A DNA stretch of 64,000 nt from assembly GCA_934167695.1 (NCBI GenBank), contig CAKPLP010000003.1, positions 11,529 to 75,528 of the forward strand. Reading direction: 5' to 3'. A program made the position numbers and the translations under genes. Every line of letters begins with the position of its first letter. Within the stretch, counting starts at the first letter, position 1. This document shows positions 60,661 through 60,813 of this stretch, in pieces. The notes under the pieces were generated by a model that saw nothing but the letters and a program-made list of their open reading frames with translations, was not told the DNA's origin and did not search any database. The stretch comes from an uncultured Bacilli bacterium (GTDB taxonomy: Bacteria > Bacillota_I > Bacilli_A > RF39 > UBA660).

Positions 60661-60813
60661 ATGAAAGAAGCTTCAGGTGAATTAAATATGACAGTTGTAA
60701 CTATTATTGCTATAGCTGCTATTGCTACATTTTTTACTACTGTAATATGGGGTAATGTTAAAAATACTATTAATAATCAATGGAATAGCGTTAGTAAACC
60801 AATAACGGAATAG
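60661..60813 (+). CDS. small hydrophobic protein (50 aa), candidate Flp-type pilin, not in the supplied ORF track
   Basis: MKEASG|ELNMTVVTIIAIAAIATFFTTVIWGNV... is a short leader ending in Gly, then a hydrophobic helix. Alternative start at MTVVT (AGGTGA RBS). Sits between tadC-like and the downstream paralogs, where flp lies in Tad loci. Confidence 0.35.
   Translation: MKEASGELNMTVVTIIAIAAIATFFTTVIWGNVKNTINNQWNSVSKPITE

Follow-up and report, generated by a model that had tools for sequence, protein, structure and literature searches.

Which protein forms the filament of a Tad-like pilus operon that, apart from one very small open reading frame (ORF), lacks a major pilin? This question is raised by a stretch of 64,000 nucleotides (nt) from an uncultured Bacilli bacterium (GTDB lineage Bacteria; Bacillota_I; Bacilli_A; RF39; UBA660), which covers positions 11,529 to 75,528 of the forward strand of contig CAKPLP010000003.1 (assembly GCA_934167695.1) and is called the window below. 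The small ORF lies at 60661–60813, and the original prediction, made from the letters of the DNA, had taken it for the gene of an Flp/Tad pilin. Our analysis indicates that it is a real gene, and that it probably encodes, in precursor form, a very small subunit of a type IV filament, the functional counterpart of Flp in a divergent Tad/Epd-like pilus of uncultured low-GC gut Bacilli. Coordinates are window positions unless a related locus is named. The window has about 26% G+C, a strong positive GC skew and nearly all of its genes on the + strand, which also carries the small ORF, the operon around it and the promoter-like sites described here.

Conservation and translation start of the small ORF

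The ORF consists of 50 codons and a TAG stop, and its translation, MKEASGELNMTVVTIIAIAAIATFFTTVIWGNVKNTINNQWNSVSKPITE, was reproduced from the sequence as originally given. It occupies most of the 234-nt gap between the stop codon of the upstream TadC-like gene (60590) and the ATG of the first of two pilin-like paralogs (60825); this next gene begins 11 nt after the ORF, and no terminator was found 3' of it. When the gap was shuffled by mononucleotides, an ORF of 50 codons appeared in 1.2% of the shuffles, and the length of the ORF taken alone is only suggestive of a gene. The exact protein of 50 amino acids (aa) is present in the public protein collection (NCBI, ENA and Logan assemblies) and is a called gene on three contigs, so that the description of the ORF as uncalled holds for the ORF track behind the original prediction but not for public data. 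The few public copies with a source name are designated 'hypothetical protein'; one JGI name reads 'F0F1-type ATP synthase membra...'. A word-seeded search identified 226 clusters at 90% identity, almost all of them without a name, and a full HMMER search of 1.84 billion representatives identified 853 clusters at 50% identity (E ≤ 1e-3). In all but a few of the 150 HMMER clusters listed, the match begins at residue 1.

To avoid circularity, we retrieved related loci via the neighboring 262-aa TadC-like protein and not via the small ORF itself. This protein has 7451 homologs, with at least 595 matches among species-representative genomes. Eighty of these genomes were fetched, and 77 of the loci had enough downstream DNA. 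A homolog of the small ORF follows the TadC-like gene in 74 of the 77 loci, immediately in all but five, where extra genes intervene. Of the three loci without it (L010, L023 and L029), all interrupted or truncated, two are without the downstream genes as well. Absence of the ORF from related Tad loci had been named beforehand as an outcome that would speak against the prediction; we observed the opposite. The organisms that carry the locus are uncultured Bacilli of the gut, among them Candidatus Onthousia, Faecimonas and Scybalousia and some metagenome-assembled genomes labelled 'Tenericutes'. Across the 80 genomes the gene order is kept from a gene for a 1131-aa protein, upstream of the pilus genes, through a TrbL-like gene downstream of them, the median identity of the secretion ATPase being 81%.

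The pattern of substitutions is that of a protein-coding sequence. The codons of the leader differ synonymously between loci (GCT/GCA/GCG, GGT/GGA, GAA/GAG, AAT/AAC). The Nei-Gojobori ratio of the proportion of non-synonymous differences to that of synonymous ones (pN/pS) is 0.10 for codons 2–9 and 0.32 for codons 10–26, while for the same nucleotides (codons 2–26) it is 0.89 and 1.68 in the other two frames. On these comparative grounds, namely the conservation of the ORF after the TadC-like gene and the substitution pattern, the small ORF is a real gene, one that hundreds of uncultured species of gut Bacilli have kept. A chance ORF would be conceivable for a sequence so short in an AT-rich genome, given the outcome of the shuffling, but hardly one that is kept with protein-type substitutions in nearly all of the loci; and for a non-coding regulatory spacer, no Rfam family at or above threshold was found. 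We therefore assign a next to negligible probability to both.

The place at which translation begins differs from the one originally suggested as an option, which was an internal ATG at 60688 preceded by AGGTGA as ribosome-binding site. Both strings exist, AGGTGA (60675–60680) standing 7 nt before the ATG, and a leaderless 41-aa protein could in principle be made from them. AGGTGA forms the codons of Gly6 and Glu7, however, and the ATG is Met10 of the translated leader. In 76 distinct loci codon 10 is ATG in 27, TTA, CTA or CTT in 45 and TTG in four, and codons 2–9, which would be untranslated, are those under the strong purifying selection just described. Since codon 10 is a non-start leucine codon in so many loci (and TTG in four), 60688 is not a conserved start codon; and since the leader codons are conserved as protein while codon 10 is not kept as ATG, AGGTGA encodes Gly6-Glu7 and is not a ribosome-binding site. 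In addition, the 41-aa version is not found in the public protein collection, whereas the 50-aa protein is, and we consider a 41-aa product very improbable. By this comparison translation begins at ATG 60661. The ribosome-binding site upstream of it is GAAAGGAG (60641–60648), which can be read as the Shine-Dalgarno sequence GAAAGGAGA (60641–60649), and only a few of the 76 loci show no AAAGGA-type site at this place. Mistaking AGGTGA for a ribosome-binding site is understandable, given that a downstream 117-aa gene really uses the similar string GGAGAGTTAAATATG as its ribosome-binding site and start.

A promoter scan detected the promoter-like site TTGATT-17 nt-TATTAT with a TG extended -10 element at 60597–60625, about 41 nt upstream of the ATG. 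In AT-rich DNA a single match of this kind has little meaning. Of the 76 distinct loci, 63 have a TGnTA[TAC]A[AC]T box at positions -52 to -30 relative to the start codon, where the background frequency of these loci predicts 1.3%, and a TTGnnA hexamer usually stands 17 nt upstream of the box. We infer that the conserved box works as a promoter of the small gene. A gene that is promoted separately within a pilus operon would be expected of an abundant structural subunit.

Protein architecture and relation to pilin families

The predicted protein has three parts. The leader MKEASG (60661–60678) is a putative class III signal peptide, with a proposed cleavage after Gly6. It is followed by a hydrophobic helix, T11-W30 (TVVTIIAIAAIATFFTTVIW, 60691–60750), a putative alpha-1 polymerization helix with a Kyte-Doolittle 19-residue maximum of 2.34 beginning at residue 11, and by a polar tail, G31-E50 (60751–60810). 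The 72 aligned members of the family have 48–83 aa (median 55); homologs in general range from 46 to 107 aa, those of 85–107 aa carrying Cys-rich C-terminal domains. The N-terminus is nearly invariant, M-K-x-A-[ST]-G-E-L-N-[LM]-T. In the 72 sequences M1, K2, A4, G6, E7, T11 and T14 are invariant, and L8, N9, V12, I18, F24, F25, W30, I33 and W41 are at least 90% conserved, while the rest of the tail shows little conservation and cannot be aligned past residue 41. A conserved N-terminus combined with a variable C-terminus is typical of pilins. Thus the proposed architecture of a Gly-ending leader, a hydrophobic helix of 20 residues and a polar tail is borne out, with an invariant Gly and a variable tail; the locus places the gene at the flp position of a Tad-like operon, as had been stated, and no other small pilin is present there.

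Assignment to the Flp family, in contrast, failed. The Pfam model PF04964 (Flp_Fap), suggested for this purpose, had no match at E ≤ 1 in the window protein and none at E ≤ 10 in the 72 members. No NCBIfam model matches the protein, N_methyl (PF07963) does not match it either, and the alignment of the family, compared by hhalign with five PGAP-annotated Flp pilins, reached a probability of 0.2%. A profile search of PDB sequences yielded no pilin, only unrelated membrane helices; a match of MKEASG to a myosin light chain was dismissed as chance. Flp pilins are processed at G/xxxxEY, with Glu at +5 and Tyr at +6, and PilFind uses [GAS]-x4-[DE] followed by at least 14 uncharged residues (PMC3244431). 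The original prediction had called the former motif loosely matched. It is absent: in the 72 sequences Gly6 is followed by E-L-N-[LM]-T-[VI], which means Glu at +1, an invariant Thr at +5 and Val or Ile at +6, and the PilFind pattern is lacking as well, no Gly, Ala or Ser standing five positions before an Asp or Glu in the N-terminus. A charged residue directly after Gly6 is also unusual for a pilin cleavage site. The sole family signal is that of the archaeal Pilin_N (PF07790), which is below threshold (16.7 bits versus a gathering cut-off of 25.2, E = 0.014), with weak matches in 10 of the 72 members (best E = 0.008).

The prepilin peptidase that would remove the leader was sought in the surroundings. 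A six-frame motif scan of the window found neither a Peptidase_A24 gene nor a GxGD[..]K motif, and among the genes scanned or already annotated from about 12 kb upstream to 19 kb downstream of the small ORF none matched Peptidase_A24. Two polytopic membrane ORFs without assignment (29442–30209 and 48521–50086) showed nothing A24-like on inspection. Prepilin peptidases are often encoded away from the pilus genes and are common to several systems (PMC6668835). The window encodes an orphan canonical type IV prepilin at 42745–43518, with the sequence MNNKG|FTLVELI, an N_methyl motif and a Cys-rich C-terminal domain of 230 residues, and no pilus-assembly match was found among the few flanking ORFs scanned around it. 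Because of this canonical prepilin (KG|FTLVE), a PilD/ComC-type prepilin peptidase is probably encoded elsewhere in the genome.

The failed searches of pilin families, the absence of both processing motifs, the charged +1 residue, the sub-threshold Pilin_N signal and the lack of a peptidase gene nearby all weigh against a pilin, and two properties of the neighboring genes have to be added to them: the sixth residue of the leader, Gly in the small protein, is not strictly invariant in the two pilin-like paralogs downstream, being Ser in some, and the two proteins taken for the assembly platform are assigned by transitive, sub-threshold homology. On the other side, the small size (50 aa), the leader, the single hydrophobic helix (residues 11–30) and the short tail are those of the Flp type. 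By sequence (Pfam, NCBIfam and hhalign) it is not a member of the Flp family. The small protein should be filed as a separate, undescribed family, which is absent from both Pfam and NCBIfam and appears Flp-analogous in size, architecture, operon position and the pattern of a conserved N-terminus and a variable C-terminus.

The Tad-like operon and the adjoining secretion module

In the operon, the gene at 56100–56588 encodes a DUF5411 protein (Pfam, E = 3.5e-46). From the N-termini of 59 loci, these proteins have a conserved pilin-like start, M-[NS]-K-[AGS] followed by a hydrophobic helix. This N-terminus continues with [MFY]-L-T-V-G-I-I; it is similar to KG|FTLIE except that position +5 has Gly and not Glu, and DUF5411 may itself be a pilin or pseudopilin family. 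Next come a CpaB/RcpC homolog (56616–57422; Pfam RcpC, 30.2 bits versus a cut-off of 28.8; TIGR03177, 37 bits and E = 1.8e-9, under the equivalog cut-off) and a secretion ATPase of the CpaF/VirB11/FlaI type (57458–58885; Pfam T2SSE, 95.9 bits versus a cut-off of 24.9). The NCBIfam scores of the ATPase, 111 bits for VirB11, 100 for the TadA family and 94 for FlaI, are all under the equivalog cut-offs and do not settle its subfamily. Its T2SSE domain is followed by a low-complexity Asn/Ser-rich C-terminal tail of about the last 130 residues; so long a tail looks unusual for a CpaF/VirB11-type ATPase.

Two putative half-size platform proteins follow, a TadB-like one of 297 aa (58909–59802) and the TadC-like one of 262 aa (59802–60590). 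Neither of these polytopic proteins has a match in Pfam, including T2SSF. The former aligns in BLASTP over its full length with a Priestia 'type II secretion system F family protein' (E = 2e-12), which itself scores 24.2 bits against Pfam T2SSF, just under the cut-off of 25.2. The latter matches in TBLASTN (E = 2e-5) the gene that comes after the PGAP-annotated gene of this family on the Priestia plasmid. Paralogy of the two was not detected by hhalign (probability 6%), and an AF2 model of the TadC-like protein, based on an alignment of 12 sequences, was too poor to use (pLDDT 59).

Downstream of the small ORF lie the two pilin-like paralogs, of 150 aa (60825–61277), a candidate TadE/F-type minor pilin, and of 157 aa (61301–61774, leader MRDSLG), which are 35% identical. 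They share the leader M-[KR]-[DE]-[AS]-x-G followed by a hydrophobic helix, which is the same six-residue pattern as in the small ORF, and a model of one of them (pLDDT 80) shows a long helix at the N-terminus that leads into a small domain of mixed alpha/beta structure. The subsequent gene (61791–62768), kept in 54 of 56 full loci, encodes a 325-aa protein without a significant family match. By its position it is a possible TadZ/CpaE-like protein; an AAA_31/ParA-like gene of the Priestia locus is placed differently, between the CpaB-like gene and the ATPase gene. The presence of two single-domain platform genes together with short major pilins is a hallmark of the Tad/Epd-like clade (PMC6668835), and the operon as a whole appears to encode a Tad/Epd-like machine.

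Several further genes were seen in or near the related operons. Upstream of the DUF5411 gene lies the gene for the 1131-aa Cys-rich secreted protein (52681–56076), a homolog of which stands first in the Tad-like operon in 69 of the 80 related loci; it has no family match and no obvious LPXTG motif or C-terminal anchor, and might be a tip adhesin or a sortase substrate. The start of its gene is overlapped by a sortase-like gene (51879–52697; Pfam Sortase, 35 bits, with the class B sortase model well under its cut-off), which occupies the same place in L001 and L004 and elsewhere usually lies beyond the flank that was fetched. Locus L075 (6892–9973), and also L012, L026, L049 and L065, contain inserted genes for a flavin amine-oxidase-like protein of 520 aa and a polytopic membrane protein of 511 aa without a Pfam match; in L075 they stand at the junction of the TadC-like gene and the putative small pilin gene. 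This pair could be a pilin-modification module of the glycosylation type.

The pilus genes run directly into a type IV secretion system (T4SS). The module starts with the already mentioned 117-aa gene (62831–63184), a called gene for the first of two pilin-like (VirB2-like) proteins; in L004 the homolog of this first copy matches PF18895 (T4SS_pilin) with E = 9.5e-4 and the second copy with 3.2e-7. Just before its ATG, at 62778–62806, stands TTGACA-17-TATTAT, with 11 of 12 matches the best sigma-70-like match in the region, which suggests that the T4SS module has a promoter of its own. From here (62778–64000) the operon runs past the edge of the window, and its continuation could be followed in L001 (12171–20153) and L099 (5821–19041). 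The longer contigs carry genes for the two VirB2-like T4SS_pilin proteins, a TrbL/VirB6-like protein, a split VirB4, a cell-wall hydrolase and VirD4. VirB4 is divided into parts of 184 and 596 aa and has its best match, of 350 bits, in the family of the ATPase of a Mycoplasma integrative and conjugative element (ICE; Mbov_0397), and VirD4 scores over the cut-off of the CD1115 family.

On a 578-kb contig the T4SS block is followed by housekeeping genes (rhodanese and RmuC), and no relaxase or integrase was detected. The rhodanese and RmuC flanks recur in 12–14 of 23 full-length loci that were found independently via VirB4, and the Tad-like module lies upstream in 19 of the 23. The Tad-like and T4SS block as a whole is kept in different species and looks like a domesticated chromosomal system and not like a mobile element. 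Functional coupling of the two parts is a matter of speculation.

Elsewhere in the window we noted a CotE spore-coat gene and a gene for a 732-aa RpoD-like sigma factor (2561–3088 and 38477–40675). Because of the CotE gene, this low-GC lineage probably sporulates. The sigma factor has its sigma-70 regions only in residues 206–461, with long N- and C-terminal extensions.

A putative minimal pilin, its alternatives and its relatives

The reading that we favor, that of a small filament subunit, can be put together as follows. The gene would be transcribed from its own extended -10 promoter, besides any read-through from upstream, and translated from ATG 60661, as conservation indicates. The precursor would enter the membrane via its hydrophobic helix, and the leader MKxA[ST]G would be removed by an A24-type prepilin peptidase encoded elsewhere, leaving a peptide of 44 residues that starts with the invariant Glu and has a predicted monoisotopic mass of 4861.6 Da, or 4843.6 Da if the Glu cyclizes. 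The ATPase, acting on the TadB/TadC-like platform (58909–60590), would polymerize the helices into a thin filament, with the two larger paralogs, and possibly the DUF5411 protein, serving as minor or priming pilins and CpaB as an envelope-spanning accessory. Since the genes of a complete Gram-positive T4SS follow directly in the operon, it is plausible, though speculative, that the filament supplies cell-cell contact for this system.

The main alternative is that the small protein is an uncleaved single-pass membrane accessory or assembly factor of the Tad-like machine or of the T4SS, and that the filament is built from DUF5411 or from the larger paralogs. In its favor, a canonical cleavage motif is lacking and the search of the surroundings yielded no peptidase, the locus has three larger proteins with pilin-like N-termini, and some Gram-positive tad loci have TadE-like proteins as possible structural subunits or no recognizable prepilin (PMC3244431). 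We nevertheless regard such an accessory role as unlikely, as the invariant Gly-Glu junction in register with the leader of the paralogs, the hypervariable tails with Cys-rich domains and the dedicated, conserved strong promoter fit an abundant surface subunit better, and the smallest pilin is the major pilin in Tad and Epd systems (PMC6668835). The small size, the leader ending in Gly, the variable C-terminus and the nearby conjugation-type T4SS might also be those of a secreted or membrane-active peptide with no role in a filament, such as a bacteriocin, a pheromone or a T4SS protein for entry exclusion or immunity. This is improbable: the leader ends in a single Gly and is not a double-glycine leader, no ABC/C39 exporter is associated with it, the gene lies between the platform genes and the pilin-like paralogs in all but five of the loci carrying it, and the most conserved part is the hydrophobic N-terminal helix and not the tail.

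If the small protein is a pilin, its closest counterparts by organization are the Flp pilins of Tad pili. Both have a very small precursor (50 aa here, 55–62 aa in the five annotated Flp pilins) with a short Gly-ending leader, a hydrophobic helix of about 20 residues and a short polar tail, and both are encoded with a CpaF-type ATPase and CpaB/RcpC, as well as with two half platforms of the TadB/TadC type and larger TadE/F-like pseudopilins, which are putative in the present locus. The small protein differs in having no detectable sequence homology to Flp, a leader of only six residues, and Glu at +1 with an invariant Thr at +5 instead of Glu at +5 and Tyr at +6; its locus differs in that it contains no tadV, the gene follows tadC and does not stand at the head of the operon, and the operon is fused to a T4SS.

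Among monoderm bacteria, Gram-positive tad-like loci have been described of which some encode 'Flp-like' proteins lacking Tyr at +6 and others no recognizable prepilin (Imam et al. 2011, PMC3244431), and DUF5411 was found with CpaF and PilC/GspF in predicted secretion operons of Clostridia (Roseburia, Ruminococcus, Eubacterium), a possible new system (Miller et al. 2022, PMC9523054). These loci resemble ours in being monoderm and distant from the classical tad locus and in having CpaF, a platform and rcpC/tadZ-like genes, with DUF5411 in the 2022 set; the family of the small protein is not described there, and those loci have no link to a T4SS. When 72,556 plasmids were searched by TBLASTN with the TadC-like protein, a single distant match was found, on a 198-kb plasmid of Priestia koreensis (NZ_CP061869.1, 163726–169505; L087). 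The order of genes in this locus is DUF5411, SAF/CpaB, ParA-like, 'CpaF/VirB11 family', 'type II secretion system F family', the homolog of the 262-aa protein and DUF4320. It has no small ORF, the position of which is taken by the DUF4320 protein (MSEG followed by a hydrophobic helix).

The archaeal Epd-like pilins (PF07790), source of the only weak family signal, belong to pili that also have two single-domain platform genes and short major pilins and that are the sister group of Tad (PMC6668835). Here the match is under the gathering threshold, the host is a bacterium, and no EppA/FlaK-type peptidase was identified. In EppA-dependent pilins a Gln at +1 cyclizes to pyroglutamate. By analogy, the invariant Glu at +1 of the small protein could behave like this Gln.

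Type IV filaments are coupled genetically or functionally to VirB4/VirD4-type transfer machines in the R64 thin pilus and in the archaeal Ups pilus with Ced DNA import, both of which are T4b or archaeal pili with full-size pilins. The present case differs in that the Tad-like module, with a putative subunit of 44 residues, shares a conserved chromosomal block with a Mollicutes-ICE-like T4SS. In the literature on DUF5411, on RFN20/RF39 pili and on Tad-like and conjugative Gram-positive systems, covering not all journals, we found no account of the family or of a Tad-T4SS fusion. A bolder version of our reading, which we put forward only tentatively, is that of a hitherto unrecognized class of minimal Tad-like pili with a processing rule of its own (a six-residue leader, cleavage before an invariant Glu that may cyclize and no Glu at +5), integral to and inherited together with a chromosomally fixed, relaxase-less, Mollicutes-ICE-like T4SS as its mating or contact pilus. 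If this is true, a large clade of gut Bacilli would have a Gram-positive mating or contact pilus that serves a domesticated machine for the transfer of DNA or protein.

In summary, the small ORF family, being strongly conserved, is a candidate for the subunit that a large branch of Gram-positive tad-like loci seemed to lack. It brings with it an N-terminal motif for sequence searches and the predicted mass of a mature product for mass spectrometry. Because the family is absent from Pfam and NCBIfam and its few named copies are called hypothetical, current pilus-detection models would score these loci as incomplete. For the abundant uncultured low-GC gut Bacilli that carry it, the putative small pilin may offer a handle on cell-cell contact and possibly on DNA exchange.

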